Shown piece by piece: positions 1-32,000 of a stretch of 32,000 nt of DNA. The position numbers and the translations under genes are program-made. Origin of the DNA: Candidatus Saccharimonadota bacterium. GTDB taxonomy: Bacteria; Patescibacteriota; Gracilibacteria; BD1-5; UBA6164. Position 1 is the first letter of the stretch; each line of letters starts with the position of its first letter. The stretch lies in assembly GCA_963677765.1 (NCBI GenBank), contig OY782392.1, forward strand, positions 630,001 to 662,000, given 5' to 3'. Under the pieces are notes generated by a model. It was not told where the DNA came from. It searched no databases and worked only from the letters and a program-made list of their open reading frames with translations.

Positions 1-2
1 AA

Positions 3-800
3 ATAGAATGAATAACTACAGCATCATGACAAACTGATATTTTTAATATATCAAGAGAAAATATTAAAATAGATTTTGATGATAATAAAGCAGAAAATAA
101 TTCATACAATATACTAGTAGATGACTTCAAAAATAATTGAACCTGAACAGTTATGCTGTGAAATCTAGAAACAATAAATTGAAAACAAGAATTAGATATA
201 AACTGGATAGAAGTATTAAACAATAGCAATACTGCAGTAATATATTCAAAAGATTTAGACAATGATGGAATACAAGAAACAATAGAAAATCTTAAAGCAA
301 TACTAGATTATAGTATAGAACCAGAACCAGAAATCTTATCATGAAATATAAGCTGAAAAATATGACTATATCTACCACAAGAAATATGCAAAAAGATATG
401 AAATAAAAATTGTAGTCAAATAGTAAAACAACTAGAAAAAGAAATACTAAACAAAACTACAAAACTAATATTAGAAAAACAAGAAGAGTTAGAAGATGAA
501 ATAGAATGAAATAATAAAAACAAAAATAAAGATAAAAAACAAAATAAAAAATTAAAAGATAAAAACAAAGAAGAAAAACAATATATAGAACTAGATAATA
601 AATGAAACTATAAAATAGTAGATTTAGAACCATGAATTTATAAACTAAGTTTAGAATTAAAGAAGTGATGGATTACAAAAACTCCACAAACTTGATACTA
701 TATTCTAGAAATAACTAATTGAGAAAATTATATAGATAAAGATTTTCAGGTTATAAATAAACTTCTAGAACAATTAATTAAGAATTTAAAAATTAAATAA
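3..800 (+). CDS. hypothetical protein, C-terminal part (5' end lies outside the window); K/N/E-rich low-complexity stretch around 480-600
   Basis: The frame starting at position 3 has no TAA/TAG until TAA 798-800 once about 16 in-frame TGA are read as Gly. No family recognised. Confidence 0.6.
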
Positions 801-819
801 TATATAATAATAAAAAATT

Positions 820-1269
820 ATGAAAGAAAAAATTAAAAATATAGTTAAGAATAGATATTTTAAAATAATAGTTTTTGTATTATTATGATTATTTATACTT
901 AGAGAATCATATGCGGTTTATATAGATATGTATAACTTTAAACAATTAGAAAAAGCTAAACCATATTTAGAAACAATAGATAAAAATACAAAAAAATTTT
1001 ATAGTTTAAAAGAATTTAATGTAATATATAGTGCTTGAATTAAACCAATTAGAAATTGTTATGATGTTAGTAATTACAATTGAAATGAAAAATATATTTT
1101 TTGATTTAAATTAGAGTCATTAATATATATATATATATATAAAACAAAATATTATGCATATCCTAAATATGATGCTCCATATAGAAATTGGTGTGAAGTA
1201 TGATTAGGTTGTTATGATAAAAATAAAGAAATATTTGAAAGAGTTATATCAAATCCATGTGAAAATTAA
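820..1269 (+). CDS. small exported/membrane-anchored Cys-containing protein, paralog 1 of 3 (149 aa), intact
   Basis: ATG 820 to TAA 1267-1269. N-terminal basic stretch plus hydrophobic segment (KIIVFVLLGLFIL). Four Cys (NCY, WCEV, GCY, NPC). The in-frame (TA)n tract encodes IYIYIY. Five TGA read as Gly. Confidence 0.75.
1123..1141. repeat. (AT/TA) dinucleotide tract, about 9 units, inside paralog 1, in frame
   Basis: Read directly: taa-tatatatatatatatata-aaac. Confidence 0.95.
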
Positions 1270-1278
1270 ATAAAAATT

Positions 1279-1765
1279 ATGAAAGAAAAAATGAAAAATA
1301 TAGTTAAGAATAGATATTTCAGAATAATAATTAAATTTTTTATATGATTTTTATTATTATTAATATTGAGTTTTATATTAGTTGCTATATATAGTTTTAC
1401 ATTTGAAAAAGATAAGATAGCAATAGATAGATATAATTTTGAACAGTTAGAAAAATCTAAACCTATACTAGAATCAATACCAGAAACTGATAAAAATTTT
1501 TATAGTTTAAAAGAGTTTAATCAAAAATATAGTGCTGATATACAACCAATTAAAAATTGTTATTATATAAGAAATTATAATTGAGATGAAAAGTATATAT
1601 TTTGATTTAAACTAGAGTCATTAATATATATATATATATAGAACAAATTTATTTGCATATCCTAAATATGATTTACCTTTTGTTCCAATGTATTATTCAG
1701 GTTGACCTTGAGATAGAAATAAATCTAAATTTAAGTATACAATTTCAAATCCATGTATAGATTAA
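1279..1765 (+). pseudogene. paralog 2 of the same family, frameshifted at its (TA)n tract (phase-OFF copy, pseudogene or assembly slip)
   Basis: The ATG 1279 frame hits TAG 1639-1641 right after the TA tract. The conserved C-terminal part (FAYPKYDLP...ISNPCID, TAA 1763-1765) continues in the +1 frame. Adding one TA unit restores a full-length reading frame. Confidence 0.75.
1624..1640. repeat. (AT/TA) dinucleotide tract, about 8.5 units, inside paralog 2; its length puts the downstream part out of frame
   Basis: Read directly: tta-atatatatatatatata-gaac. The tract-plus-linker is 2 nt shorter than in paralogs 1 and 3. Confidence 0.95.
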
Positions 1766-1780
1766 TAATAAATAAATTAG

Positions 1781-1993
1781 AACAAAATAGATATATATCC
1801 AAATCAAACAATAATTGAATTAATTTGAGAATGAAACCCTACAGTACAAACAAGTAATTGAACAAGAAGTAAAGACTGAACAGTTAGGTATGGAAGAAAT
1901 ATAAAAGCTACTATACCTCCAATATGAGAAACAAGAATAATAGAATTTAAAATAAATTGAGAATCATGATTTTTTACTATTATAAGGGAATAG
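1781..1993 (+). CDS. orphan open frame of about 70 codons with no ATG/GTG/TTG start (possible gene remnant or non-canonical start)
   Basis: No TAA/TAG between TAG 1778-1780 and TAG 1991-1993. This is unlikely by chance in such AT-rich DNA. Seven TGA read as Gly. The translation looks protein-like (DIYPNQTIIELIGEGNPTVQTSNGTRSKDGTVRYGRNIKATIPPIGETRIIEFKINGESGFFTIIRE). Confidence 0.3.
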
Positions 1994-2018
1994 ATTATAT
2001 ATAATTAAGATTTAAAAA

Positions 2019-2459
2019 ATGAAAAATATAGTTAATAATAAATATTTTAAGATAATGATTTTTGTATTATTATGATTATTTATACTTAGAGAATCATATG
2101 CGGTTTATATAGATATGTATAACTTTAAACAATTAGAAAAAGCTAAACTATATTTAGAAACAATAGATAAAAATACAAAAGATTTTTTTAACTTAAAACA
2201 ATTTAATGAAAGATATAATGCTTGAATTAAGCCTATTAAAAATTGTTATGATGTTAGTAATTATAATTGAAAATATCCATATGTATTTTGATTTAAATTA
2301 GAGTCATTAATATATATATATATATATATAAAAAGTTATTTTGTATATCCTGGTTATGATGCTCCTATACAAATCTTTTGTGGCTGAGGATCAGAATGTA
2401 CAGAGGATGTAAATAGAAAAATATTTGAAAGAGTTATATCAAATCCATGTGAAGAATAA
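2019..2459 (+). CDS. small exported Cys-containing protein, paralog 3 of 3 (146 aa), intact
   Basis: ATG 2019 to TAA 2457-2459. Positions 2059-2148 are identical to 872-961 of paralog 1. The in-frame TA tract encodes IYIYIYI. C-terminal ERVISNPCEE matches paralog 1. Confidence 0.75.
2310..2330. repeat. (AT/TA) dinucleotide tract, about 10.5 units, inside paralog 3, in frame
   Basis: Read directly: tta-atatatatatatatatatata-aaaag. Confidence 0.95.
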
Positions 2460-2470
2460 CACAAATAAAA

Positions 2471-2505
2471 AGTTAGACAATTTATAAATTGTCTAACTTT
2501 TTTTC
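2471..2505. terminator. bidirectional rho-independent terminator between convergent genes
   Basis: Perfect hairpin agttagacaattt / aaattgtctaact, with an A-run on the left and a T-run on the right. Confidence 0.7.
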
Positions 2506-2670
2506 TAACTCAATTATTTCTTGTTTTTCTTTTTCCATTTCTCAAGATAACTTAGCTTCTTCTAGTTTTCTCTTTGCTTCCTCTTGTTTTTTCTTCATAT
2601 CTTTTATATATTTTCTTACTTGAGATTTTGTCATTTTTGGATTTGATCATTTTGGAGCAAGTTCGTTCAT
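2482..2670 (-). CDS. small K/E-rich coiled-coil protein (62 aa), hypothetical
   Basis: ATG at 2670 to TAA (complement of 2482-2484), 63 codons, 2 TGA. Lies 42 nt downstream of recR on the same strand. No family recognised. Confidence 0.45.
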
Positions 2671-2712: not shown

Positions 2713-3321
2713 TTATATTTCTTTTCTTTCTTTTATTGCATTAAGTAGTGTAATATTATCAGCATATTCAATATATCAACTAGATAATCATCTAGATAGC
2801 CTAGTTATTTTTGTTTTGTATTTTAATTTTCTTTTTTCTATTTCTTCTATTATGTAATTACTTGTAGCTTCTCATTCTATATTTGGGTTTGTAGCTAGTA
2901 TTAATTCTATATTTTCATCAGATTCTATAATTCTTTTAAATAATTCTTCAAATTTTAAATCTCATATAAATACTCAATTAATTGGGGATATAGCTCATCA
3001 TAAGACATGATATACTCATTTATATCATCATGCTTCCTCAATAGTTAACATATCTAAATATTCTTCAACTATAGCTATTGTAGTATGCTCTCTATTTCAA
3101 GATTTACAAATATTACATTTTGATTGTCATTTATCGCATAGGGAGTTACATACTTCACAAAAAGCTATGTTATCTTTTATGTTTATTAGGTTATCTGATA
3201 AATTTTCTATATAGTTTTTATTAGCATTCATTAAGAAAAAAGCTAATTTTGTTGCTGACTTTTCTCATATTCATGGAAGATAACTAATTGCATTAATTAA
3301 TTGTTTTAACGATTCAGGCAT
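2713..3321 (-). CDS. recR: recombination protein RecR
   Basis: Translation with TGA=Gly: MPESLKQLINAISYLPGIGEKSATKLAFFL (HhH), a C4 zinc-finger region (CEVCNSLC...CNIC), and Toprim YHVLGGAISP...ILATNPNIEGEATSNYI...RLSRGLSSGYIEYAD. 202 aa, which is typical. Confidence 0.93.
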
Positions 3322-3786: not shown

Positions 3787-4728
3787 CTATCTTATTTTTT
3801 TTGCAAATCTGGCTTTTGCACTCCTACTTCTAGGGTTTTTGTTTATTTCATCCTCACTAGGGATTATCGGTTTTTTGTTTAATAATTTTAGGCTTTTTTT
3901 ATGATTACAAGAGCATATTATATCACTACATATACAATCTCTTGTTTCTTTTTTAAATATTTGTTTTGTTATTCTATCTTCTAGTGAATGAAAACTTATA
4001 ACAAATATTATTCAGTCTTTTTTTAGTATTTTTATTGCATCATTTAATGCTATTTTTAATGCTTCTAATTCTTGGTTAACTTCTATTCTTAAAGCTTGAA
4101 AAACTCTAGATCTTACTTTTACATTATTTGGAAGTATTTCTGCTAAATCAAAAGTAGTTTTGAATTTTTTTATTTTTCTTTGTTCAATTATTTTACTTGA
4201 GAATTTATTAGCTCAAGGCTCTTCTCAGTATTCTATAATAATTTTTCTAAGTTCGTCTTTAGTATAACTGTTAACAATATCAGCAGCAGTAGCTCATTTT
4301 GATTTGTCTAGTCTCATATCAAGAGGTCAGTCTTTCATAAAACTAAATCATCTATCTGCTTCATCTAAATGAAGACTAGATAATCATAAATCAAAATATA
4401 TTCATGTTATAGAGTAGATTTCTTTTTTTTCTAACTCTTTTTTTAAATTAATAAAATTAGAATTTATTAATATTATTTCTATATTTTTGTTTTTGTTTAT
4501 CTCATTTAATCTTTGTTTGGCTAGTTCTAGGTTTTTTATATCTGCATCGAATCAAATAAAAATATCTCCTAAATTCATTTTTTCTATTATTTTACTAGCA
4601 TGTCATCACATTCATAATGTCATGTCAACAATAACATTTTTTTCATCATTTTTTATTTCGATAGAATCTACTAATTCATCTAATAAAACTGAAATATGTC
4701 TATCTTCAATACTTTTTATATCAGTCAT
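3787..4728 (-). CDS. rsmH: 16S rRNA (cytosine1402-N4)-methyltransferase RsmH (MraW)
   Basis: [79 protein letters not shown]. 313 aa. TAG stop at complement of 3787-3789. Confidence 0.93.
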
Positions 4729-5032: not shown

Positions 5033-5773
5033 ATGATTGAAATAAAAGATTTAAAAGTTTGAATTTGAGAGAAAGAAATACTTAGATGAGTTAGTATGAG
5101 TTTTGAAAAATGAAAAAACTATTGTTTATTATGAAAAAACTGAAGTTGAAAATCGACTATTTCATCTTTTTTGATGTGAAATCCAAAATATGAATTGATA
5201 TCAGGTGAAATAAGTATAGATTGAGATGATCTTTTGGAAATGGAGCCAGAAGAAAGATCTAAAGCAGGATTATTTTTGTCTTTTCAAAATGTACCTGAAA
5301 TAAAATGAATTAAACTTTGAGAGTATTTAAGAATTATTACTAATATTTCATTAAAAAATAAAGATAATACTGCGAAAGATTTATCTCCATTTATTTTTAA
5401 AAGATATATAAAACAATACCTAAATGATTTAAATATTGATGAATCATTCTTGGACAGAGATCTAAATGTATGATTTTCATGATGAGAAAAAAGAAAAATA
5501 GAAATATTGCAAATGAAATTAATTTGACCTAAATATATAATTTTAGATGAAATTGATTCATGACTTGATTTGGATGCATTTAGAAGTGTAGCTTCAATGT
5601 TAAAAGAATTAAGTAATGAAAATAATTCTTTAATTATTATAACTCATTATTTTAAAATTCTTGAATATGTTGATGTAGATACGGTTTATGTTATGAAAAA
5701 TTGAGAAATAGTTAAATATTGAGATAAAGAATTAGCATCATATATAAGTAATAATTGATTTGAAGAGTTTTAA
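5033..5773 (+). CDS. sufC: Fe-S cluster assembly ATPase SufC
   Basis: Walker A GKNGSGKST is spelled TGA AAA AAC TGA AGT TGA AAA TCG ACT at 5132-5158. ABC signature FSGGEKRK. Walker B ILDEIDSGLD. By hand count about 19 of 21 Gly codons are TGA. Confidence 0.95.
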
Positions 5774-5797: not shown

Positions 5798-7201
5798 ATG
5801 TCTAATTTAGAAGCAAAAAATATGAGTATATCAGATTCTTGGTCTTTCCAAGATGATATTGTTTATACTAATGAAGCAATTAAATGAATAAATGAAAAAG
5901 TTGTTAGACAAATAAGTTTGTCAAATAATGAGCCAGAATGGATGTTAGAGTTTAGATTAAAAGCTCTAGATGAGTATAATAAGAAATCTTTGCCTTCTTG
6001 GTGACCTGATTTGTCTAATTTAAACTTAGATGAAATTTATTATTTTGCAAAACCTGAATGAGCTTGATCTAAGAAATCATGGGATGAAGTACCAGAAAGT
6101 ATTAAAAATACATTTGATAGATTATGAATTCCTGAGGCTGAAAAAAAATCTTTAGCTTGAGTTTGAGCTCAATATGATAGTGAAGTTGTCTATCATTCTT
6201 TAAAAGAAGAATTAGTTGAAAAATGAGTTATATTTGATGATACTTCAATAGCTTTAAATAAATACCCAGAATTAGTAAAGAAATATTTTTCAAAATGTAT
6301 TCCAATTTATGATCATAAGTTTGCCGCTCTTCATTATGCAGTTTGGTCATGAGGTACTTTTATGTATATACCTTCTTGAGTTAAATTAAATGAGCCTTTA
6401 CAATCATATTTTAGAATGAATAAAAAAAGCTGAGGTCAGTTCGAACACACTATAATTATAGTTGAAGATGATGCAGAAGCTCATTATATAGAATGATGTA
6501 GTGCTCCTAAATATGATGAAGCATCTTTACATGCTGGTTGAGTAGAAATTTTTGTATGAAAAAATTCTAAAATGAGGTATTCTTCGGTAGAGAACTGGAG
6601 TCAAGATACTTATAATCTTAATACAAAAAGAGCTATTGTATGAGAAAATTCATATATGGAATGGGTTTGAGGTAATATGTGAAGTTGAACTACTATGTTA
6701 TATCCTTGTAGTGTATTAGTTTGAGATAATTCAAAAACTGATATGTTGTGAGTTGCTTTTGCTAATAAATGACAAAATCAAGATGTAGGTGCAAAAGTTA
6801 TACATATTTGAAAAAATACTAGTTCAAATATTATATCTAAATCTCTTAGTAAATGAGGATGAATTTCTACTTATAGAGGTTTGGTTGATATAAAACCAGG
6901 TGCTGAAAATTCTATTGCTAAAATAGATTGTGATGCATTACTTCTAGATGAAAAATCAGTAAGTGATACTATACCAAATATTTTGGTTTGAAATAGTAGC
7001 TCAATTGTATGACATGAAGCAAGTGCATGAAAAATAAATGAAGATGACCTTTTTTATTTAAGAAGTAGATGAATTGGTGAGGATGAGGCTACTGCTATGA
7101 TTGTTAATTGATTTATTTCATGAGTAGTTAAAGAATTGCCTTTAGAATATGCTAGTGAGATGAATGTTTTAATTTCTATGGAATTTGAGTGAGGTTTTTA
7201 G
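5798..7201 (+). CDS. sufB: Fe-S cluster assembly protein SufB
   Basis: 467 aa. WMLEFRLKAL, AGVGAQYDSEVVYH, HYAVWSGGTFMYIP, GQFEHTIIIVEDDAEAHYIEGCSAP, HIGKNTSSNIISKS, GHEASAGKINEDDLFYLRSRGI. TAG stop at 7199-7201. Confidence 0.95.
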
Positions 7202-10824: not shown

Positions 10825-11511
10825 TTATAATGAGTTTAAATCAATTTTTATTGATGGTCACATAGCATTACATACAAATATAGTATTTATATATTTACCT
10901 TTTGAACCACTTGGTTTAACATCATTTATAGTTTTAATAAAATAGTTTAAGTTTTCTTCTAATTTATCAGCACCAAATGATAATTTACCAAAAAATGAAT
11001 GAACATTACCTTGTTTATCAGTTTTGAATTCAAATTTACCTGCAGCTATTTCTTTTACAGCAGAAACTAAGTCATTAGATACAGTACCAGCTTTTGGATT
11101 AGGCATTAAACCTTTTGGCCCTAAAACTCTAGCAATTTTACCTAAGTGTCTCATCATAGAAGGAGTAGCAACACAAACATCAAAATCTAAAGAAACATTT
11201 CCTTTTTCGATATCATCAATTAATTCTTCACCACCAGCTATAGCAGCACCTGCAGCTAAAACATCTTTAGCAGATTCATCAGTAAAAGCACAAACTCTTG
11301 AAGTTTTACCTGAACCATTTGGTAAGCTTATAGTAGTTCTAATCATTTGATCTGCATATTTTGGATCAAGATTAAGATTGAAATGAATTTCTACAGTTGG
11401 ATCAAATTTAACTGTATTAGTTTTTTCTAATAATTCAACAGCTTCTTTAACGCTGTAGCTTTCTGAATTTAATAATTCAACAGCTTTATTATATTTTTTA
11501 CCTCTTGCCAT
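10825..11511 (-). CDS. rplA: 50S ribosomal protein L1
   Basis: The track ORF 10858-11511 ends at a TGA. Read-through gives ...CNAMGPSIKIDLNSL, restoring the conserved L1 C-terminal MGP motif, with TAA at complement of 10825-10827. Only 1 of about 18 Gly codons is TGA. Confidence 0.95.
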
Positions 11512-12310: not shown

Positions 12311-12505
12311 CTACAAATGAGGTAATTGTTGTTTGATTTTTTTAGCTTCAGTTGATGAAACTATTAAACCATATTTATTTCTTCCTTTTGCTTTTTTAGT
12401 TTTATCAGAAAGTAAATGTCTTTTCCAAGCTTTAGCAAGTTTAAATTTACCTTTACCAGTAACTTTAACTCTTTTTTTAACTCAGCTTCTAGTTTTTAAA
12501 GTCAT
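12311..12505 (-). CDS. rpmI: 50S ribosomal protein L35
   Basis: MTLKTRSGVKKRVKVTGKGKFKLAKAWKRHLL, 64 aa, TAG stop. Sits in the classical infC-rpmI-rplT order. Confidence 0.9.
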
Positions 12506-12532: not shown

Positions 12533-13048
12533 TTATTTAATAGGTTTTAACATTGCAACAAATGTATTACCATTTTTTTTGATTTGTCATTCAAGTTTAT
12601 ATGTTTCACTTATAGATTCTACAAAACTATGAATTTTTTCATTTGCTATTGTTTCATAATGATTTTCTCTTCATCTAAGCATCAAACTAACTTTTAATGG
12701 ATGTCATGCTTTACCAAACTTTTCAGCTTGATTTTTTCTTATTGCTAAGTCATGATCTCATATTTTAAAAGTTATTCTGATATTTTTTAAATCAGGAGCC
12801 TTTCATTTTTGTTTATTTTTTTGTTCTTGTTTTTTTTGTCTGTACAAAAACTTTCAATAATCAAGAATTTTAACTATAGTTAAATCTCATTTTTTTCACA
12901 TTTCCATCAAGTCAAGACTCCTCTCTTGAGCCATTTCTCTTGCTTGTTCAAGTTTCATTTCTCAAAGATTTTCTCATTCTTCATTGATAAGTTGTATATC
13001 TTTAGCAACAATCTCATCATTAATTAATCTCTTTTTTTCTTTCAAAAT
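12533..13048 (-). CDS. infC: translation initiation factor IF-3, apparent ATT start (alternative ATT at 13063 or TTG at 13045)
   Basis: RLINDEIVAKDIQLINEEGENLGEM...LDLMEMG...VKILDYGKFLY...RITFKIGDHDL...LMLRGRENHY. There is no in-frame ATG or GTG between the upstream TAA and the conserved N-domain. Confidence 0.9.
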
Positions 13049-18671: not shown

Positions 18672-18745
18672 TTAATTCTCTTTGTTAAAAAATATCTTGG
18701 AATCCATTTTATAAATTAGATTGCTTTTGTAAAGTATAAAAAAAT

Positions 18746-18776: not shown

Positions 18777-19830
18777 ATTTTTTTAGTTGGTAGTAATTTC
18801 TACCTACTCTTTCTATTACTTGTTTATTTTGAAGGTTCATGTATATAGTTGTTTGTTTTACATTTCTTGTTTTTAAAACTTCTTTTGTAATTTCTTCTGT
18901 ACTCATTGGTTCTCATTTTTTTTCTAGAGCATCAACTATTACATCTAAAACAGTTCATGGATTGAATCACCATTCTTTCAAAGCATATATTCATCTTCAA
19001 ATAAGAACAAATTCATTATTTCTTATAAGCTCATTATGAATTGTATTTACTTTTACTTTTTCTTCTAGCATATCAGTTATTTTATTTGATATATCTACGA
19101 AGTGCATTGGTATTTTTTCTTTTTTCATTACATAAATTGCTTTGTCTTTCAGAGTTTTTGGATTTAATATTTTCCATTTAGTAAGTCAAACTAAATTATT
19201 TTCTCAAAATATTATATCTTCAAATAATTCTAAACTTGAGTCAATAAATGTTAAGCTATATCTTTGTTCAGTTTTTAAATTTTCAGATATCATTTCATAT
19301 AATTTTGTTTTTGAAATTACATCTTTTTTTCTTTTTAATACTTTTAAAGCTTCTTTATGTACAGCTTCAATAGTATTTTTTGATACATTTGGTAAATAAA
19401 AATAAATTTTACAACCAAGTTTTTGTTTAGATTTTTTTATTTCATAATCAGATTGTATTATGAATTCTAAAACTCAAGAATTTATACTAGAATCTAAATC
19501 TAAATCTTTTATTATATTATTAATCAGTCTATCTTTAGAGATAACTCATCAATGCATTTCTATAAAATGCATCGCTTTTTCTTGGATTTTTGTTAATAAA
19601 GTTGCTTTAATTATTCTACCTATTTTTTTTATTCAAGAATCTTCTATTTGTCTAACTCTTTCTCTAGTTATAGATGGTGAAAAAGAATTTCAAATATTTT
19701 GTAGAGTTTCCTTCTCTCAGTTTAGTCAAACCCTTCTTTCTATTACACTTCTTTCTTTCTCTGAAAGAGAATTAAGTATTTCTTCAAAAGACTTTACTAT
19801 ACTCTTGTTATTTAATATTATATTATTCAT
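18775..19830 (-). CDS. DNA-binding protein with an N-terminal sigma-70 region-4-like HTH and a C-terminal HARE-HTH-like domain
   Basis: LSEKERSVIERRVGLNGEKETLQNIGNSFSPSITRERVRQIEDSGIKKI resembles sigma region 4. The C-terminal MSTEEITKEVLK...TIYMNLQNKQVIERVGRNYY resembles HARE-HTH. 351 aa. Confidence 0.65.
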
Positions 19831-19907
19831 ATTTACAAGGATATAACTTTAATAAATTTATACTAATATATAATTGTTTTTATAAAAAAGTCAAACTTTT
19901 TTAATTT

Positions 19908-20480
19908 TTAAAAAGGTAATTTCATATTGTTTTTTTCTTTGGCTAATTCTCTTTCATAACTTAACTTTTCTAGTATTATTTCAGAATTAGTTTTTTTGAA
20001 TTCTTTTCTTATTAATAATCATCAAATTAGTATTATTAATCATGCTGTCATAGATAATGTTGCTCATTTTCAATAAGTCATTCATTCTGAAATTGTTGTT
20101 AATCATGTAGCAAAACTTATTAATATAATACTGAATGCTAAACTTATTAATCATGAATTTATTATAATAAAATGAGTTCTAAAATTTAAATCTGAATATA
20201 GTTTTATTTTTTCTTTATATGAATTAGATAAAATCATTAGAAGTGGAAGTATATATATTATTATAAGTATATATCATATGTTTCATGATATAGGGTTTAA
20301 AGAATTCCATGTTAATGATTTTTCATTATCTACTATCCAAGGTAAAAATATACTAAAAATTCAAATAATTGATCATATAAGTACTATTTGTTTTTCAAGA
20401 GTTAAATTTAATGATTTAAACTTAATACTATCAATAATATTTTTTATTATTTTTATTTTATTTTTATTTCTGTTTTTCAT
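19908..20480 (-). CDS. hypothetical integral membrane protein (190 aa)
   Basis: Open frame with 11 or more TGA read as Gly. Four or five hydrophobic segments. K/N-rich N-terminus. Confidence 0.6.
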
Positions 20481-20582
20481 GTTTTTTCAAAATTATTATA
20501 AATTTTGAAAAAACTTTAATTATATTTGATATTTTTGCAAATACTTTATAATAATTATGTTAAAATATTAAATATAGTATAG

Positions 20583-20828
20583 ATGAAAGATAAAAAATTG
20601 ATTAAAAATTCATTTTTTGAGCTTATTTTTTTTGTTATAAGTTTTTTATTATCTTTTTTTAGATCTTTTTTTGTTTTTTTTTCTAGAAATACTAAAAAAA
20701 ACAATATTTTCTTTTTATTTTTAGATTTTATATTTAGAAAATGGCCAAAATATTTTTGGAAAAAACCTTCTTTATATAAGATATTATCATTTCCTTGAAA
20801 TTTAGTTAATTACTTACTTAAAAAATAA
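20583..20828 (+). CDS. small hydrophobic/basic protein (81 aa), possibly a degenerate pilin-like N-terminus
   Basis: The track ORF extended through one TGA to TAA 20826-20828. KNSFFELIFFVISFLL loosely resembles a prepilin N-terminus. Ends 1 nt before the pilin-like gene. F-rich composition could be T-rich noise. Confidence 0.35.
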
Positions 20829-20829
20829 T

Positions 20830-21999
20830 ATGAAAAAAAACTATAAGGCTTTTACTTTAGTTGAAATAATGTTATGAATATTAGTTGTTTCAGCAGTTAT
20901 GTTAGCTTGATTTCAAGCTTATGTTAGTATAGGTATTTGAAAGGTTAATCTAATAGAAAAATCTAATATTCAAAAAGATAGTTTTTACTTTACAGAAAAG
21001 TTATTCCAATTAATAAAACAATGAGGTACAATAGATTATGAAGAATATTTTAATAGAAAAGTAGTTTGAACAAATTCATCAAGTTGAAATTATATTTCAG
21101 CAACTTGATTTTGAAATTTCTGAAAATGATGAGATTTAGTGTGAAATTATTGAGCTTGATTTTATTTTTGTAGAAGTTTATCAAGTACTACATTTGTATC
21201 TTCAGATTGATGTTATGATAACCCAGTTGTATCTTCAGATCTAAGCTCTGATATTAATTGAAACAACTTTTCTGCATCAATTTGAGATATGCAAAGATAT
21301 GGGCAATATAGTTTTCAATTTATTGATTATAATTCTAATATGAATAATGATTTATGAGATGAAAATATAGATGCTAATATTATATGAGATGATGATGATG
21401 AAGTTATATGATTATGACCAATAGTTTTTAATTCATGAGATGATGTAAAAGAGTTATATCTTATCAGCTGAGACTGAACAAAAAGAACTCTTATTAGATG
21501 GAATATAACTAGAGATGTTGATGCTCCATCTTCTTCTACTTGTGATGCTACATTGACTACAGATTTTTCAAGTACTGACTTAGAATGATGTAGATGAACT
21601 GTTGAATTTTTAAAGTTAGAGTGAGTAGATTGGTGAATGGATCATCTTAATTGAACTAGTGATACTGATAATAGTGAATATGATTGAGTTATAGATACTT
21701 GGTTGTATGATAGACAATTTACATGATGAACTGATGTTATTGCTACTACATGAGATTGATATTGGAAAGAATTATTCCCAGATACTATTAATGTAACAGA
21801 TTTTAGAGTTTATGTTTATCCAAATGTTGATCCTGAAAATTCTTGGAAAGATGATTCAGCCTCATCAAAAATTTCACCTTATGTAACAATAAATTTTAAA
21901 ATTAAACCATCTTGGTCAGTTAGAGCTAGATTAAGAAATGAAGGGAAAGAAGTAAATTTAACAACAACAATTAATTTAACAGAGATATATAGTAATTAA
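20830..21999 (+). CDS. large type IV pilin/pseudopilin-like protein with a prepilin-type N-terminal cleavage/methylation motif
   Basis: MKKNYKAFTLVEIMLGILVVSAVML carries the class III signal (K-A|FTLVE with Glu5). 389 aa, Gly/Asp/Ser-rich, with several Cys. Most Gly codons are TGA. Confidence 0.75.
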
Positions 22000-22004
22000 T
22001 ATTT

Positions 22005-22913
22005 ATGAAAAATAATAAAAATGCTTTTAGCTTGGCAATTGCTATGTGACTAGTCTTGATTACTAGTCTTTTAGCTTTCACTATTTTGGAATATATGATT
22101 CCTTTTAGTAAAAATATTAGTTGAATAGAAAACTCTACAATGGCTTATTATAAGTCAAATAATTGAGTTGAATTAGGTTTATATTTTTTGAATTCTAGAT
22201 CTGATAATGAATTAAAAAATTCAAGTTCAAGAAATTATATAGCAGGTTATTATTATGATTATGAATTTGATACTCAAGTATCTTGAAATTCTATACCTAT
22301 ATCTTGAATGTGAAATAGTTTTTATAATAATGATTATAATAAAATATTATCATGAAATCCTATTCAATTAACAGTAGGTTATAATTATTTATGATGATGA
22401 AACTTTAATATATCTTTTATTGTCCCAGATTTAGATAAAAATTGATTATTAGATGAAGAGTTAGATACTTCTTTATGAAATGATTTATGAATAGTTAACT
22501 GGCAATTAACTAGTGATAGTTCTACATTAAATTCTCATTCTGGTTCTTTGTTTACAGTTTGAGAAATTAATAGTATGACAGATGATATAAGTCCTTTGGT
22601 TGTTAATATGTTTACTAGACAATGAAGATTACTAGACGGTACACCAACTAATTTTTGATCTTTTTATAATAGTAATTGTACTTGAACAAGTGATGAGTGT
22701 ATACTTAAATTTTCAATAATTAATACTTTAAAAACTTCAGATAGTTGAGTTCCTTATTTAGAGTGGAGGGCTACTACTTGAACTGATCAACTTCCTTTAC
22801 GTTATTCTATAATTGAATCAGAATGAAAATCTTATGGTTTTGTTAAATGATTGAATGTAAGAGTTCCTCAAGAAACTGTTTCAGAAGCTTTTGACTTTAC
22901 TGTTATACAATAA
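22005..22913 (+). CDS. minor-pilin-like protein (N-terminal hydrophobic pilin-type helix lacking Glu5)
   Basis: MKNNKNAFSLAIAMGLVLITSLLAFTILEY has no Glu at the fifth position after the putative cleavage site, a trait also reported for some minor pilins such as GspK. 302 aa. Adjacent to the pilin-like gene. Confidence 0.6.
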
Positions 22914-22934
22914 AAAAGAGTTTAAGCTCTTTTT
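22913..22934 (+). terminator. weak A/U-rich hairpin terminator
   Basis: aaaaagag / ctcttttt with loop tttaag, followed by T-rich sequence. Confidence 0.35.
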
Positions 22935-22959
22935 TGTTTTAATTTTAAAAAAAATAAAA

Positions 22960-23970
22960 ATGAAAATATATAATATAGAAGAAAATGACTCTAATCAAAG
23001 ACTAGATAAATTTTTAAAAAAATTATTTCCAAATGCCACAAGAAGTCTTATTTATAAATTTAATAGAAAGAATAAGATTAAAATTCAATCAATTGATACT
23101 GATTGAAAATTTAAAAAAATGGATAATGAATATAAGCTAAAAACATGAGATATAGTTAAAATTTTTTTAAGTGAGAAAGATTTTGATTTATTAACAACAC
23201 AAGAAAAATCTGTAAGCTTGAGTAAAAATGATTCTTTAGATAGAAATGATATAGTATATGAGGATTGAGATTTACTTGTTTTAAATAAAAGTCCTTGAAT
23301 TAATGTTCATGCTTGAGATCATAAAACAAAAGAAGCTAATATTATTATGCAGGTTCATGATTATCTTTGAAACTCTTTAAATAGTTTGACTTTTAAGCCA
23401 AGTCTTATACATAGAATTGATAGAGATACTAGTGGAATTTTACTTATATGAAAGAAAAAAGAAACTCTTACAAAGTTAGTTTGAGATTTTAAGGATCATA
23501 AAAAGGTAAAAAAAATATATTATGCTGTAGTTATATGAAAATTATCTAGAACAGAATGAACTATTAAAAAACCTTTAAAAAGAATAGAATGAGCAAAAAA
23601 TGAAAATAAAGTTCAAGTTGCTAATGATGGTCAAACTGCTATTTCTCATTATAGGCTTTTAAAAGAACATAATTTAAAAACTAATGAATGAAATATTATT
23701 TTATCTGAAGTAGAAGTAAAAATTGATACATGAAGAATGCATCAAATTAGGGTTCATATGGCTAGTTTATGAAATCCTATATTATGAGATAAAGCTTATG
23801 GAGATAAAAAAATAAATAGATATTTTGAAATAAATTATTGATTAACTAGACAGGCATTACATGCATGGAAAATTGATTTTTTTCATTATGCTAGAAATAA
23901 AAATTTTTCTTTGGAGGCTAGAATAAAAGAGGATTTAAAAAAATTGATAAATGATATAAAAAATAGTTAA
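22960..23970 (+). CDS. RluA-family pseudouridine synthase (RluD/RluC-like, with S4 domain)
   Basis: S4-like N-terminus (QRLDKFLKKLFPNATRSLIYKF), catalytic HRIDRDTSGILL, TGRMHQIRVHMA, ALHAW. 336 aa. Confidence 0.88.
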
Positions 23971-23995
23971 TTTATTATAAATTAACTATTTTTTT
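23963..23995 (+). terminator. rho-independent terminator
   Basis: atagttaattta / taaattaactat hairpin plus a T-run. Confidence 0.65.
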
Positions 23996-24049
23996 GATAA
24001 AAATTAAAATAAATATAATATTAATATATTAATATTAAGTCTTATTATT

Positions 24050-25189
24050 ATGATAGGTTTTATTTTAAAGTTAATGCTGACAAGAGGTTTATCTATGAAA
24101 AGATGGAATAATTTCCCTCGTATAGAAGATGTTAGTCATTTAGATAATGTTTGATATGTTATACATATTGCTTTATTTTTATCTTATTTAGAAGAGAAAA
24201 ATTGAAAAAAAGTTAATAGAGAGTTTTTAATAAAAAGAATTATTTTTAATTCATTTTTATCATTATTAATTTCTGATATAAATTCATGAACAAGGGAATA
24301 TATAAAAAATATAGATTCATCAATATTTAGACAAATCGAAGATTTATGAATTAAAAATCTTTTAGACTTAGACTCACCAGATTTTATAAAAAAAGATTTA
24401 GAATCAACTCTTTTGAATACTGATAATAAATTAGAGTTATTGATAATTGATTGTGCTAAAAAATATGCATGACTGAATGAATGTACTATTAACTCAAAAA
24501 TTTATGATGATATTTATGAAGTTCCTTTATTTGAAATAAATGGTTTTTTAAATGAAAATAGAAATAAATTATATAGTTTAAATATACTTTTAGATAATGA
24601 TAACTACAAAAAATATTTATCGCATATAAGGAGGTTAAGTCATTCTATGAGATGGAGTTGACAAACAAGGATATTTCCAATTTCTGTTATGTCACACCTA
24701 GTTATAATAACATATATTGCATATGTTATATGAATGATTGAAAATAATAATTGAAAGAATTACTCAATTGAAGAATTATTACTTAGAACTATTTACCATG
24801 ATATTCCAGAAGCAATAACAGGTGATATAATTACTCCTACAAAAAAATCAGTAGATTGATTTGTAGAAGTTCTAGAAAAAGTAGAAATAAAAATGATGGA
24901 TGATTATATGTTTTCTTATGTAGATAATGATTATAGGTCTAATGTTTTTGAATATATGTTAAATCCTTTTGATTGAGAAATTTGAAAAATAGCTAAACAT
25001 GCAGATATTTATTCAGCTTTATTGGAATCAAAAATTGAAAGAAATTATTGATGAAAGAACTTTTCTCAAATATATAGAAATATAAAAAAAATTTTAAATA
25101 AAATAGATACATCTAGTATGGATTATATGCTTAAACATGTAATTGATAACTTTGATGAAAAAATTGATGATATACACTTAAAAAAATAA
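24050..25189 (+). CDS. YfbR-like HD-domain protein (5'-deoxynucleotidase family), apparently with a degenerate N-terminal repeat of the fold
   Basis: The C-terminal half has MRWSGQTRIFPISVMSHL ... LLLRTIYHDIPEAITGDIITPTKK (H...HD...D). The N-terminal half has KRWNNFPRIEDVSHLDNV but no HD dyad. 379 aa. Confidence 0.7.
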
Positions 25190-25194
25190 TTAAA

Positions 25195-25929
25195 ATGGAT
25201 ACTTATAATAAATTTTTAAAATATTATGATGAAATAGTTAGAGGTGTTAATTCTCCTTTGGAAGATGAGGTTGAATTTTTGGTTGAAGATTGTATAAAAG
25301 AATATAAACCTGACGCTAAAACTATTTTAGAAGCTGCTTGTTGAACTTGAACAGTTGCTTTAGAATTAAAAAATAAATGATATAATATATCTTGATTCGA
25401 TATAAATGATAAAGCTTTAGAAATTGCTAAACAAAAACTATGAGATAAAAATATTTTTAAAGCTGATATGGTTAATTTTGATTTAAATAAAACATATGAT
25501 GTTGTTTTATGTAATTATAATTCAATATGTCATCTTCTTGATTGGAATGATTGGGTTTCATTTTTTTCAAATGTATATAATCATTTAGATAAATGAGGAA
25601 TATTTATTTTTGATATAAATACATTGTATGAATTTGAAAATATTACTAAAGAATTCGCTCAATTTTATACATTTTGAGAAGATGTTGTATGTTTAGAAAT
25701 GTTTAAAAAAACTTGATATTTTGAATGGTTAATAAAAATATTTAATCATATAGATTGAGATAATTTTAAACTGACAAAAGAGCTTGTTAAAGAAAACTCT
25801 TTCTCTATTTCAAAAATAGAAAATGAGTTAAAATTGAAATGATTTGAATTAAAAGAAAAAATAGATTACCATTATTGAGAGGTTTCGGCTGAAAGTGAAA
25901 GAGTTTATTTTATTTGTATAAAAAAATAA
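25195..25929 (+). CDS. class I SAM-dependent methyltransferase
   Basis: Motif I ILEAACGTGTVALEL, followed by GFDIND and VVLCNYNSI. 244 aa. Confidence 0.8.
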
Positions 25930-25930
25930 T

Positions 25931-27289
25931 ATGGATGTTTCTTTAATACTAAATCTACTATTATCGATAGGTTTATGAGCACTAGTGTGAATGGAAAGGT
26001 GAATAAGTGATAAAATAAAATCTATAAATAAATCTTCTATTAGTTTTTGAGATATAAGAACATTTGCATTGATTTCTTTATTGTGAGCATTAAGTACTTG
26101 GTTTTGAATAAACTTATGAATTTTATCTTTTATTTATATTACCTTTTTTATAGTTTCTATTTTTATAGCTATATATTATATTTATACAGTATTTAAAGAA
26201 AAACAGTTTTGATTAACTACTGAACTATCAGCAATAATAACATTTTTTCTTTGAATGTTTATTATGATAGGGTATTCACAAGTTGCAATCATTCTATCAA
26301 TAGTTTTAACATTTTTATTATCATCTAAGTCTTATTTAGATATTTTATTGCAAAAAATTAGTAAACAAGAACTTAATAATACAATAAAATTTGCTGTAAT
26401 ATCTATTGTTATTTTGCCATTATTACCTAATTCTAAATTCTCAATCTCAGATATTTTATATTATATATGATATAATAATGAAATAAATAACTCTATATTA
26501 AACCTAGATTTTTTAAATCCTTATGGTATTTGGTTTTTTGTTGTTTTGATGTCATGAATATCATATGCTTGATATATAATGAGTAAACTTATTTGAGAAA
26601 AATGAAGTATATTGGCTTCTTGAGCAATATGATGACTTGTTTCAAGTACAGCAGTAACAGCTGCTATGTCAGAATCAAGTAAAAAAGATATAAAAAATAG
26701 ATCTATGTATGTAGTTTCAACTTTGCTAGCATCAACAATTATGTTTGTTAGGGTTATATTAATAGTTCTATTTTTTAATATAAATATGGTTTCTACAATA
26801 ATATATCCAAGTGTTTTTATGCTTATATGAATGCTTGCTTATATGATTTATTTTTATTATAGTTCAAAAAATAAAGAACTCCATGTTGATAATCTAAGTT
26901 TTGAGGAGAAAAAATATAAAAGTCCATTTAGTATTGCTCCAGCTTTAAAGTTTGCATGATTTGTTCTTTTTATAAAATTTATTGCTTGAGTTTGAGCTTT
27001 GTATAAAGATGTATGGGGCGATTATTTTTTCTATGCACTTTGAATTATTTCTTGATTAGCTGATGTTGATGCTATAAGTCAAACTATGGCTGTTGATGCA
27101 TTTGATTGAAAAGTTTGATTAGAATTAGCAGCTATAACTATAATAATAGCTGTAATTTCAAATAATTTGGTTAAAGGTTCTATTTCATTGAAATTTTGAG
27201 AAAGAAAATATTGAATTTCTGTTATGCTTTGATTTGTTATTTCAATGCTTATGTGAATTTTTGGTATGTTTTTCATGAAATTATTATAA
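25931..27289 (+). CDS. MgtC/SapB-family plus DUF4010-type integral membrane protein
   Basis: N-terminal LLLSIGLGALVGMERG (MgtC signature), then about 10 or more TM segments. 452 aa. Confidence 0.75.
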
Positions 27290-27320
27290 AAAAGCTTGGT
27301 TTTTAAACCAAGCTTTTTTA
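27288..27320 (+). terminator. rho-independent terminator
   Basis: aaaaagcttggttt / aaaccaagcttttt perfect hairpin plus a T-run. Confidence 0.75.
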
Positions 27321-27392
27321 TAATAATTGTTTTATTTTGATTTAGATTATATATTAGTTATACTTACTCAAAATAATTTTTAAGTTAATTAA

Positions 27393-28505
27393 ATGAAGTA
27401 CGTATTATCTACTATAGCATGAGTTGAAAGTATTGCTAAAAAAGAAATTGAAAGAGTTGGTTGAAAAATAGAGGAAACAACAGATAGATTAGTTACTTTT
27501 TCTTGATGAATAGAATTAATTCCTAGAGTTAATTTATGGTCAAGAGTAGGAAATAAAATGTATTTGTTGCTTGCTGAAAAAGAATGAGTAAAAGATTTTG
27601 ATAGTTTATTTGAAATTGTTAATTCTATTTCTTGGAAGGCTTACTTTAAAAAAGATTTTCCTATAGTTGTTAAGTCAACAAGTATAAGAAGTGAGCTTTT
27701 TGCTGAAAGAACAATTCAAAGTATTTCAAAAAAAGCAATAATAAAATCTAGAGTTTGAGATAACTGAACTATAAATGAAGATCCTATGTTAGAAAAAATG
27801 GAAATTCTTATTTTGCTTATTGATAATAAATTAAGAGTACTTTTAAATACTAGTTGAAAAGCTCTTCATATGAGATGATATAGAGAAAAATCATGAGATG
27901 CTCCTATAAAAGAGTCTTTGGCTGCAGCTTTGGTTTTATTGTCAGGTTGGAAATTCAAAGAACCATTTTATGATTTTTTCTGTTGAAGTGGTACTATTTG
28001 AATAGAAGCTTTAATGATAGCTAAAAACATTGCTCCATGATTAAAAAGAAAATTTGCTTTTGAAAAATTTGGGATTGTTAATAGTGAAATTACTGAAAAT
28101 GAAAGACTTGATGCTAGAAAAAAAGAGTTTGATTGAGAATATACCATTAGATGTAGTGATATAGATCCTGAAATGGTAGAATTAGCTAAACAAAACTCTA
28201 TAATTGCTTGATTGTGATGAGAAATTAATTTTGAAGTAAAAGATTTTAGAGATGCTTTATCAAAAGAGTTATATGGTAGCTTGGTTTCTAATCCACCTTA
28301 TGGAGATAGATTAAAAGATGATGATTTAAAGTGAATATATAATAATATAGATAAGATTTTTAGAGTAAATCCTGCTTTGAATTGATGAATTATTTCAAGC
28401 TATTTAGAGTTTGATAATATTATTAATAATCATAAATCTTATAAAAAAAGAAAATTATATAATTGAGGTGAATTGTGTTACTTTTGGAAAAAAAATAATA
28501 ATTAA
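27393..28505 (+). CDS. THUMP-domain class I SAM-dependent RNA methyltransferase (RlmL/RlmK N-terminal-type, COG0116)
   Basis: THUMP-like N-terminal region, FYDFFCGSGTIGIEA (motif I), and SNPPYGDRL (NPPY motif IV). 370 aa. Confidence 0.85.
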
Positions 28506-28508
28506 TTT

Positions 28509-28841
28509 ATGAATACTATTTGAAGGCTAATGCCTAATAAATTTTATGAATATTTGAATTCATGAAAATTTACTTTAATTGACTTTAGAACTCCTGAAGA
28601 AAAAATATATTATTGATATATAGAGAATACAGATTTATTTATTGATGTATATAGTAAAGATATAGTTGAGAAAATATTATCTTTAGATAAAAATAAATCT
28701 TATTTAATATATTGTTTTCATTGAAATAGGACACAGGGAGTTTTGGATTTTATGGATAAAAATTGATTTAAAGAAGTTTATGATTTAATTTGATGAATAG
28801 AATATTGGGAAAATTATAATTATAAACTTAAAAAAGATTAA
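28509..28841 (+). CDS. single-domain rhodanese-like sulfurtransferase
   Basis: LIDFRTPEE and the active-site loop CFHGNRTQ. 110 aa. 7 of 8 Gly codons are TGA. Confidence 0.8.
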
Positions 28842-28890
28842 AACTTGATTTTACTTAAAAACATATATAATTAATTAGTCAAACTAAAAA

Positions 28891-28896
28891 AGGAGG
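28891..28896 (+). promoter_or_regulatory. Shine-Dalgarno sequence AGGAGG, 6 nt upstream of GTG 28903
   Basis: aaaaAGGAGGctgacaGTG. GGAGG-type motifs are absent ahead of nearly all other starts I inspected. The exception is AAGGAG ahead of the gene starting at 31758. Confidence 0.6.
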
Positions 28897-28902
28897 CTGA
28901 CA

Positions 28903-29382
28903 GTGTATAATATTATCACCTTGGACCATAGTACAGCAGGTATTCCTGAAGATGGCTTTGGTGTCGATGATAATGGTAATTTTTTTGTTGCCATATCAAA
29001 AATGGGCTTTATCAAAAATAAGGATTCTTTAATTTTTTTATTTGTAAATGACAAAATTGTTGTTACATATGCTAAAATTAAAAAATCAAGAACATATAAA
29101 GCTGATAAATTTCGTTCTATAAAAAAACAAGCTCAGGATTCATATGATATTATGGTTATCGATAGGATTATTGAATATCATTTGATGTTTCTGGGTAGGT
29201 CTAAAAGAAGAAAAAATATTGATGTTTACCTTTCGCGTGTACATGTGAATAGGGTAATTTCAAATATTCTTTCCCGTGTTTATAAGCATGTGGGGGCTTA
29301 TTATGACAAAAATAGTGTAAATTTAAAAAGACATAAGTATCAGGATTTTTATCTGAGGGTAAAAGATGCTGGATTTATGTGA
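28903..29382 (+). CDS. compositionally atypical hypothetical protein (159 aa): GTG start, no internal TGA, terminates on TGA (a stop only in the standard code)
   Basis: Intact in the standard-code track. SD-led. Uses CGT, GGC, GGG, CTG, GAC and ACC codons that are rare in neighbouring genes. The TGA at 29380-29382 lies 6 nt before a strong terminator hairpin. No family recognised. Confidence 0.6.
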   Translation: MYNIITLDHSTAGIPEDGFGVDDNGNFFVAISKMGFIKNKDSLIFLFVNDKIVVTYAKIKKSRTYKADKFRSIKKQAQDSYDIMVIDRIIEYHLMFLGRSKRRKNIDVYLSRVHVNRVISNILSRVYKHVGAYYDKNSVNLKRHKYQDFYLRVKDAGFM

Positions 29383-29388
29383 AAAATA

Positions 29389-29420
29389 AAAGACAAAAAG
29401 TTTTTAAACTTTTTGTCTTT
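29389..29420. terminator. bidirectional terminator shared by the atypical ORF and dnaK
   Basis: aaagacaaaaagt / actttttgtcttt 13-bp hairpin with T-runs on both strands. Confidence 0.8.
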
Positions 29421-29429
29421 TTTATTTAA

Positions 29430-31331
<1,902 letters not shown>

Positions 31332-31395
31332 ATATAAGAAAATTAAGTTTTAAATTTTTGTAATTTTTCAACAGTCATTTTTATGACTTGCTAAA

Positions 31396-31423
31396 ATATT
31401 ATCATTTTTTTTATATCTGTCAA
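31396..31423 (-). promoter_or_regulatory. sigma70-type promoter TTGACA-N16-TAATAT upstream of dnaK
   Basis: Minus strand TTGACA (31423-31418) and TAATAT (31401-31396). Confidence 0.5.
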
Positions 31424-31430
31424 AACTTTT

Positions 31431-31457
31431 TTAGCACTTTTTTATATAGAGTGCTAA
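31431..31457. promoter_or_regulatory. CIRCE operator (HrcA binding site)
   Basis: TTAGCACTT-N9-GAGTGCTAA, one mismatch from the consensus TTAGCACTC-N9-GAGTGCTAA. Lies about 100 nt upstream of the dnaK start. Confidence 0.85.
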
Positions 31458-31465
31458 AAATAAAA

Positions 31466-31510
31466 ATTGCAAAATTAAAACAGGGTATAAAAACCCTGTT
31501 ATTTTGCAAT
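31466..31510 (-). terminator. long interrupted hairpin terminator after the DUF465-like gene
   Basis: attgcaaaat..aacagggt / accctgtt attttgcaat, followed by T-rich sequence on the minus strand. Confidence 0.6.
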
Positions 31511-31512
31511 GT

Positions 31513-31758
31513 TTAAGCTACTTTTTTACATTCATTTTTTTTCTTTTCTTGTAAATAAGTACTTATTTTAGATTGTATTTTGGACTTTAAATTACATTTT
31601 TTCTTTTTTAACTCACTTGTATTTGAGTATTGTCCTTTTTCATCAATTTCGTTTGAAACTGATTTAAACTCATCTACCATTGCTGCAAAGTCATCATCTT
31701 GTTGTGTTAACTCCTCGATAATATCTGCATTTTCTTTTAAGAAATCTGACTTTCTCAT
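31513..31758 (-). CDS. small coiled-coil protein, DUF465/YdcH-like (81 aa)
   Basis: Intact track ORF. The pattern ...DDFAAMVDEFKSVSNEIDE...ELKKKKCNLKSKI resembles YdcH-family proteins. AAGGAG lies 7 nt upstream of the ATG. Confidence 0.55.
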   Translation of the reverse strand: MRKSDFLKENADIIEELTQQDDDFAAMVDEFKSVSNEIDEKGQYSNTSELKKKKCNLKSKIQSKISTYLQEKKKNECKKVA

Positions 31759-31907
31759 TAAATAACTCCTTTTTTTCTGTATTTACTTACAATGATTTTT
31801 TTAATGTAAGTTTTTTATTTATAATATTTTTTTTATTTTAGTCAAATTTTGTTTTTTGTAATTTGTATGTTATAATAATTAAAAGTTATTTATCTAATTA
31901 TTTTTTT

Positions 31908-32000
31908 ATGGAAAATTATGATTTAATAGAAAATAAAGCAGAAGAAGAATATACTAATGAATTTGATAAATATGTTAGCTATTTGGAAAAAAAGAGAAAT
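31908..32000 (+). CDS. hypothetical protein, N-terminal fragment (runs off the window)
   Basis: ATG 31908, open to the window end (31 codons). An extended -10-like TGTTATAAT lies about 35 nt upstream. Confidence 0.4.
   Translation, partial: MENYDLIENKAEEEYTNEFDKYVSYLEKKRN

Follow-up and report, generated by a model that had tools for sequence, protein, structure and literature searches.

Introduction

The change of UGA from a stop codon to a glycine codon is a known genetic code of the Gracilibacteria and Absconditabacteria, and it is listed as such, together with the expected tRNA-Gly that has UCA as its anticodon (tRNA-Gly(UCA)) and the lack of release factor 2 (RF2), by Shulgina and Eddy 2021 (PMC8629427). 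It is table 25 of the National Center for Biotechnology Information (NCBI), the Candidate Division SR1/Gracilibacteria code, for which Campbell 2013, Rinke 2013 and Hanke 2014 are cited in PMC8629427 and PMC6851277. The code was validated by proteomics, with 97 peptides unique to the glycine version of the proteins and 3 unique to the tryptophan version (PMC4032931), and none of the BD1-5 genomes examined was found to have prfB (PMC6851277). In the gTranslate preprint the log UGA/GGN feature is clamped at 0, i.e., at a ratio of 1 (10.64898/2026.05.24.727570). Here, a window of 32 kb is described, which comprises positions 630,001-662,000 of the forward strand of contig OY782392.1 from Candidatus Saccharimonadota (Gracilibacteria, BD1-5, UBA6164; assembly GCA_963677765.1). 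The GC content of the window is 23.5%, and we are nearly certain that it is Gracilibacteria (BD1-5) chromosomal DNA that is written in table 25, with TGA read as glycine. The second subject is an open reading frame (ORF) at positions 28903-29382 of this window, ORF 28903, and the gene family to which it belongs.

The code of the window is already known in kind. It shares with the described table 25 genomes UGA as glycine, UGG as tryptophan, UAA and UAG as stops, a low GC content and the affiliation with the Gracilibacteria, and there is no difference in kind. The sequence-only reading had taken it for the documented code of the Gracilibacteria and SR1, and table 25 is indeed assigned to this lineage in the literature (PMC8629427, PMC4032931, PMC6851277). 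Table 4, which is used by the Mycoplasmatales and several insect endosymbionts, has in common the use of UGA as a sense codon, the loss of RF2 and AT-rich, reduced genomes, but it differs in the amino acid, which is tryptophan.

Results

Coding Capacity with TGA as a Sense Codon

With the standard bacterial code (table 11) the stop-to-stop ORFs of at least 100 amino acids (aa) sum up to 2,580 aa, compared with 13,193 aa when TAA and TAG are the only stops. The share of the window that is covered by ORFs of at least 150 aa is 0.05 with table 11 and 0.94 with TGA as a sense codon. Using a cut-off of at least 80 aa, 37 gene models were obtained, which contain 9,229 codons in all and result in a coding density of 86.8%. 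They include 456 in-frame TGA codons, i.e., 72% of the 629 glycine codons, versus 173 GGN codons, and with this ratio of 2.6 TGA is unusually dominant in the window. The models end with TAA (32) or TAG (5), near the C-termini of the homologues. Together with rpmI, a zinc-ribbon ORF (17823-18050, minus strand), a 62-aa ORF (2482-2670, minus strand) and ORF 28903 the total is about 41 genes, and the earlier figure of about 45 coding sequences was overstated. The accompanying claim that they end only in TAA or TAG holds for the 37 models, but not for ORF 28903, the conserved body of which ends at TGA.

Translation with table 11 yielded 28 ORFs with a length of 60 aa or more, which are short and comprise 17 antisense ORFs, 9 fragments of sense genes and 2 ORFs outside of the gene models. 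Only two genes are intact, rpsT (S20; 13063-13362, minus strand), which has zero TGA and is intact under any code, and the gene at 31513-31758 (minus strand); in addition, L1 is 95% intact. The reading frames of recA, dnaK, pheT and the suf operon are broken. The sequence-only reading was thus right in stating that few genes survive the standard code, that most of its ORFs are antisense and that any standard-code annotation of the locus would be wrong. The label "DUF465-like", which it had attached to the gene 31513-31758, is not supported, since there was no Pfam match at E ≤ 1 to DUF465 or any credible family.

The in-frame TGA codons that had been cited were all found at the motifs in question. 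In sufC (5033-5773, plus strand, 19 TGA) all three glycines of the Walker A motif LLGKNGSGKS are encoded by TGA (5132, 5141 and 5147). The gene recA (16751-17743, minus strand) contains 22 TGA, including the P-loop glycine of PESSGKTT (complement of 17540-17542). In dnaK (29430-31331, minus strand, 18 TGA) codons 2 and 6 are TGA, and the glycines of DLGGGTFD are written GGT TGA GGT. The next example is rsmH (3787-4728, minus strand), which encodes an MraW methylase and has 12 TGA, three of them in GMGGH, which is written TGA ATG TGA TGA CAT. The gene rplA (L1; 10825-11511, minus strand) is a low-TGA, highly expressed gene, and its one TGA is the conserved MGP glycine in AMGPS (complement of 10858-10860). 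Tryptophan is still encoded by TGG, as had been noted for the WSF (5840-5842) and EWM (5939-5941) motifs of sufB (5798-7201, plus strand, 31 TGA).

Pfam families matched most of the 37 models, and these matches span the proteins from one end to the other, TGA codons included. Full-length spans were obtained for HSP70 (1-598/599), RecA (2-262/262) and MraW (3-309/309). Five Pfam domains were matched by pheT (13488-15851, minus strand, 33 TGA), and recR (2713-3321, minus strand, 14 TGA) matched Toprim_4/RecR_HhH. Further matches include SufB/C/D, NifU, Rrf2, L1, L20, S20, IF3, RecR, YidD, a RluD-type and a RlmL-type protein, and others.

TGA Stands for Glycine and Not for Tryptophan

Ten proteins of the window were aligned to their orthologues from E. 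coli K-12, and TGA was masked as X so that it could not steer the alignment. Glycine was found at 102 of the 158 aligned TGA positions (64.6%), and tryptophan at none. For comparison, GGN codons aligned with glycine at 73.5% of 83 positions, and all other codons at 3.0% of 3,028 positions. The enrichment of glycine at TGA over the other codons is highly significant (binomial p = 2e-113), whereas TGA and GGN do not differ significantly in their match rates (Fisher p = 0.19). The agreement is seen in the single genes, i.e., the aligned TGA correspond to an E. coli glycine in 18 of 22 cases in recA, 10 of 12 in rsmH, 9 of 13 in recR and 18 of 29 in pheT. At the TGG codons, 6 of 10 aligned positions are tryptophan. 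The claim that the code is not of the Mycoplasma type is therefore well founded, with no tryptophan at TGA and TGG retained at conserved tryptophans.

A search for other reassignments across all 61 codons did not reveal any departure from the standard meaning in the comparison with E. coli. The changes of CGA/CGG to tryptophan in Absconditabacteria and possibly of CGG in some Gracilibacteria (Shulgina and Eddy 2021, PMC8629427) have the super-lineage and the AT pressure in common with the window. The CGN box of the window is nearly extinct: CGA, CGC and CGG do not occur in the 37 models, CGT is used 3 times, and arginine is encoded by AGA (249) and AGG (20). The meaning of CGA and CGG is thus unreadable in the window itself, but CGA of its clade relatives aligns to arginine in 107 of 155 cases. 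No signal of a change of CGA/CGG to tryptophan or of a change of AGG was detected in the window and its relatives.

Relatives of the Window

The masked DnaK sequence was scanned against one genome per GTDB species. The best matches are "Candidatus Gracilibacteria", some of which are labelled Peribacteria by NCBI, and include the complete genomes CP017714 (HOT-871) and CP060226. The identity of DnaK amounts to 82-89% when compared with low-GC members, 67-68% with a second group of NCBI-"Gracilibacteria" and 54-62% with other phyla. The gene order of the region 22.7-31.5 kb is kept in four loci of relatives (L012, L018, L020 and L024), and two metagenome contigs have DNA identities of 94% over 24287-32000 (L087) and 78% over 17498-32000 (L088). 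Every low-GC relative requires TGA as a sense codon. Judged by DnaK identity, synteny and TGA use, the window belongs within the Gracilibacteria/Absconditabacteria (GTDB class JAEDAM01).

The 18 TGA columns of dnaK are occupied by GGN (265) or TGA (117) in 26 Gracilibacteria, and by GGN in 102 of 141 cases in 8 other phyla. When all genes common to the window and the fetched relatives were analyzed, a window TGA corresponded to TGA (482) or GGN (448) in 930 of 1,148 cases (81%) and never to TGG, and the TGG codons of the window aligned to TGG in 78 of 117 cases. Because the TGA columns of the window hold either codon in the relatives, TGA and GGN are swapped as synonyms within the clade. The number of TGA in dnaK of the relatives is 0-6 at 29-39% GC and 15-29 at 23-27% GC.

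A side observation concerns the proteins in a public collection (P0001, P0002 and P0004), which have a W where the DNA of Gracilibacteria contigs has TGA. The respective genes have therefore been called with table 4, not with table 25.

Weighing of the Possible Codes

Three points weigh against the table 25 code. First of all, 35% of the TGA columns do not have glycine in E. coli; the respective fraction for GGN is similar (26%). Furthermore, a tRNA search with ARAGORN in the window and 35 related loci did not find any tRNA. The last point is that the conserved gene 28903-29382 behaves as though TGA marks its end, which is treated below. A Mycoplasma-type code, in which TGA would be read as tryptophan, could draw on the W residues in the collection proteins P0001 and P0002, and coding density alone cannot distinguish table 4 from table 25. 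It is nevertheless very improbable, because the 158 aligned TGA yielded 102 glycines and no tryptophan, the relatives never have TGG in these columns, conserved tryptophans keep TGG, and tryptophan would make up about 5% of all residues and glycine about 2%. The standard code, with TGA codons that are true stops in pseudogenes or assembly errors, or that encode selenocysteine, has in its favour that a few table 11 ORFs are intact (rpsT, 31513-31758 and ORF 28903). However, 456 in-frame TGA are found in 37 genes that include essential ones like recA, dnaK, pheT and rplA, homology runs on past both sides of each TGA, the same pattern is present in the independent assemblies of the relatives, and an Rfam search of the window did not detect a selenocysteine insertion sequence (SECIS) element or any other RNA element. 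The probability of this explanation is negligible.

The window is best explained as a part of the chromosome of a very AT-rich member of BD1-5 that translates with table 25, i.e., with UGA as glycine, UGG as tryptophan, and UAA and UAG as stops. By extension from published work on the lineage, UGA would be decoded by a tRNA-Gly that has UCA as its anticodon, and RF2 would have been lost. AT mutational pressure has probably pushed GGN to TGA, with GGA to TGA being a single step, because the use of TGA in dnaK climbs as the genomic GC content of the relatives drops.

A Conserved Gene Family, Most Members of Which End at TGA

ORF 28903 (plus strand) has 159 codons and is free of internal TGA; the TGA at 29380-29382 is the first stop-like codon in its frame. 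If TGA is read as sense, its frame stays open for 378 further codons, antisense to dnaK. A homology search revealed three relatives with identities of 93, 69 and 53%, and a profile search of 1.84 billion representatives retrieved 15 proteins of 153-175 aa and one fragment, all of which terminate 0-4 residues from the position of the window TGA. AlphaFold2, used with an alignment of 15 sequences, predicted a structure with a predicted local distance difference test (pLDDT) of 94.4 and a predicted template modelling score (pTM) of 0.89, and the predicted fold is complete at residue 159. The first 159 codons are a real gene, which belongs to a conserved family of 157-163 aa. No family was found in Pfam, PHROG and PADLOC, a search of IMG/VR did not yield a relative, and a comparison of the predicted fold with the PDB did not result in a match at E ≤ 0.001. 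Similarities to RRP44-like exoribonuclease modules (BFVD, E = 4e-3, template modelling score 0.57; PDB 7tuv, E = 0.02 with a poorer model) were too weak to be used.

At the DNA level nine independent members were available, all on low-GC contigs, and each contig that is long enough to be tested requires TGA as sense. The glycine codons of these nine members are 91 GGN and no TGA. The last codon is TGA in seven of them, i.e., the window together with L087 (4612-5097), L088 (10001-10483), L090 (190-663), L092 (6001-6480), L093 (212-682), L094 (91-576) and L096 (3638-4114). In the other two members, L095 and L099, it is TAA at the same alignment position. Of the members that end with TAA, one was added by a metagenome scan for the family. 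Several members came from code 11 gene calls, which favour TGA-free ORFs that end with TGA; the members of the window, L088 and L096 came from gene calls that read through TGA and are free of that bias. The neighbourhood RlmL-(rhodanese)-ORF...dnaK is common to these three, and in three or four genomes the family has a chromosomal, syntenic location.

A terminator-type hairpin followed by a T-run begins 0-7 nt past the TGA in six of the seven members that end with TGA; in the seventh, L092, no more than an imperfect hairpin can be seen. The sequences of the stems vary among the members of the family. In the window the hairpin (29388-29421) is a bidirectional intrinsic terminator of 15 bp (-15.6 kcal/mol, z = -4.3), which begins 5 nt past the TGA of ORF 28903 and is located 8 nt from the stop codon of dnaK. 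The next in-frame TAA or TAG follows 4 (L093), 13 (L096), 15 (L090), 17 (L088), 37 (L092), 53 (L087) or 378 (window) codons past the TGA, and this distance is unconstrained in the family. Among 139 hairpin sites that were scanned in Gracilibacteria DNA of about 500 kb, this family alone unites a TGA-free body with a terminal TGA and a hairpin.

The frame beyond position 29382 was considered as a gene of its own and was rejected. The translation of the ORF 29002-30519, which is antisense to dnaK, turns into an S/F-rich sequence of low complexity, and the long antisense frame 29383-30519 (plus strand) is equally open in the relatives L020 (10813-12003) and L012 (10813-11943). It is a compositional artefact, because in this register a stop can arise only where dnaK, with its nine tyrosine codons, has one of them after an NNY codon.

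Shine-Dalgarno Sites and Codon Usage of ORF 28903

The resident genes of the window have A/T-rich leaders, and only 1 of the 37 models has GGAG, GAGG or AGGA within 20 nt of the modelled start. In ORF 28903, AAGGAGG precedes the GTG start codon by 6 nt (region 28885-28902), and a site of this Shine-Dalgarno (SD) type is found in each of the nine family members. The GC content at third codon positions (GC3) of ORF 28903 is 0.22, compared with 0.10 ± 0.03 for the 37 genes (z = 4.3), and it uses codons that are rare in the window, i.e., CGT (three times), AGG (four times), CTG and GGC. ORF 28903 thus looks foreign in style.

The sole other gene of the window with a properly spaced SD site is 31513-31758, with AAGGAG 7 nt before the ATG (region 31759-31776). 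It is also TGA-free, has a GC3 of 0.20 and ends with a TAA stop, after which a terminator follows at 31479-31500. The window therefore has only two canonical SD genes, which are both TGA-free and high in GC3 and flank dnaK on either side. In a comparison set of 324 gene models from 317 kb of low-GC Gracilibacteria loci, the share of TGA among the glycine codons is 0.26 in SD-bearing genes and 0.63 in the rest. TGA-free genes with at least 5 glycine codons make up 4 of 12 SD-bearing genes, but only 7 of 259 others (Fisher p = 6e-4). Because the SD genes are poorer in TGA, a minority of "standard-style" genes exists.

Possible Explanations for the Terminal TGA

We infer that selection keeps TGA out of the body of the ORF 28903 family, because GGA to TGA is one step that is common in the neighbouring genes. 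That the last codon is TGA and not TAA is probably likewise due to selection, because only a single transition, which is AT-favoured, leads from TGA to TAA.

One explanation is that TGA is not uniformly a sense codon, but means glycine inside genes and marks a functional protein end in a few genes, either as a context-dependent stop or by read-through into the terminator, which would lead to a non-stop mRNA and a discarded product. It is consistent with the lack of TGA among 91 glycine codons of nine independent members, with seven TGA and two TAA ends at one alignment position, with a terminator hairpin 0-7 nt downstream in six of seven cases and an unconstrained 4-378 codons to the next TAA or TAG, with a predicted fold (pLDDT 94) that is complete at the TGA, and with the persistence of TGA although the change to TAA is favoured under AT pressure. 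On the other hand, this is one family only in about 500 kb of Gracilibacteria DNA, the lineage has no known release factor for UGA (PMC6851277), several members stem from the biased code 11 gene calls, and the pattern could be a relic of a standard-code origin. This explanation is therefore unlikely in our view. The termination of ORF 28903 at UGA by a route that is not known, although the lineage is without RF2, is one candidate. Another candidate is that ORF 28903 goes back to a standard-code or code-agnostic mobile gene and has long been resident. Phages with a predicted Gracilibacteria host have code 11-compatible genes without in-frame TGA, the TGA stops of which are backed up (Liu et al. 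2023, PMC10746230). ORF 28903 resembles these genes in that it lacks in-frame TGA and that its first terminal codon is TGA; in some members a further stop follows a few codons on. It differs from them in that the family is chromosomal and syntenic, has no relative in IMG/VR and no match to PHROG, and that the next stop follows only after 37-378 codons in three members.

As a third candidate, UGA may be read as glycine and the mRNA may end at the terminator without a stop, so that the product would go to trans-translation. The proposal is made by analogy with arfA of E. coli and brfA of B. subtilis, which are translated from non-stop mRNAs with a hairpin or terminator inside the ORF (PMC6881298). 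Under code 25 the hairpin 29388-29421 lies within the frame of ORF 28903, which lacks a TAA or TAG for 378 codons, and six other members have the same layout. However, the family members have 157-163 aa in contrast to about 60-70 aa, a similarity to the rescue factors was seen neither in the sequence nor in the fold, and ArfA and BrfA act through RF2, which is absent from the Gracilibacteria lineage. Furthermore, the avoidance of TGA inside the gene is not explained by a non-stop mRNA. A fourth, rather doubtful candidate is that ORF 28903 is gated by the code, i.e., that the correct product is made only where UGA terminates, and that a non-stop, discarded product is made in the code 25 state. 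The settings for this could be a standard-code host cell, or a phage that supplies an RF2-like activity or disables tRNA-Gly(UCA).

Further Features of the Window

The gene rpmI (L35, 64 aa; 12311-12505, minus strand) lies between infC and rplT and is below the 80-aa cut-off. The gene infC (12533-12958, minus strand) probably begins at a codon other than ATG, upstream of the first ATG; in the near-identical contig L086 TTG was called as its start. The gene rplA (10825-11511) is isolated, i.e., rplK, rplJ or rplL do not adjoin it, and it lies between a thioesterase gene and yidD, an unusual setting for L1.

On the plus strand, three small paralogous genes are arranged in tandem (820-1269, 1279-1641 and 2019-2459). 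Each encodes a protein with an N-terminal membrane helix, and the motifs RESYAVYIDMYNFKQLEKAK and YIFGFKLESLIYIYI are common to them. They do not belong to a Pfam family, and they are multi-copy also in the relative L012 (about 180-2450). The gap of 377 bp at 1642-2018 may contain a decayed copy.

The last example is a pair of adjacent genes for glycine- and TGA-rich proteins on the plus strand, 20830-21999 (34 TGA) and 22005-22913 (21 TGA). Their hydrophobic N-termini, KAFTLVEIM… and NAFSLAIAM…, are alike, and the former protein has a weak match to the N_methyl prepilin motif (E = 3.8e-4), which is under the Pfam cut-off. The sequences suggest that both are type IV pilin-like proteins.

Discussion

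The code itself is established, and the window adds another very AT-rich member, in which TGA is the main glycine codon. For its annotation the choice of the table is decisive: translation with table 4, which was apparently used by the public protein collection, turns about 5% of all residues into tryptophan, catalytic glycines included. The deposited protein sequences for the lineage thus have tryptophan at every TGA glycine.

The ORF 28903 family consists of conserved chromosomal genes in code 25 genomes that look as if they were written for the standard code. The family offers a concrete test of whether, and how, a reassigned UGA can still serve as the end mark of a protein. If the code-gated reading were true, the genetic code itself would act as the gate for the expression of ORF 28903.

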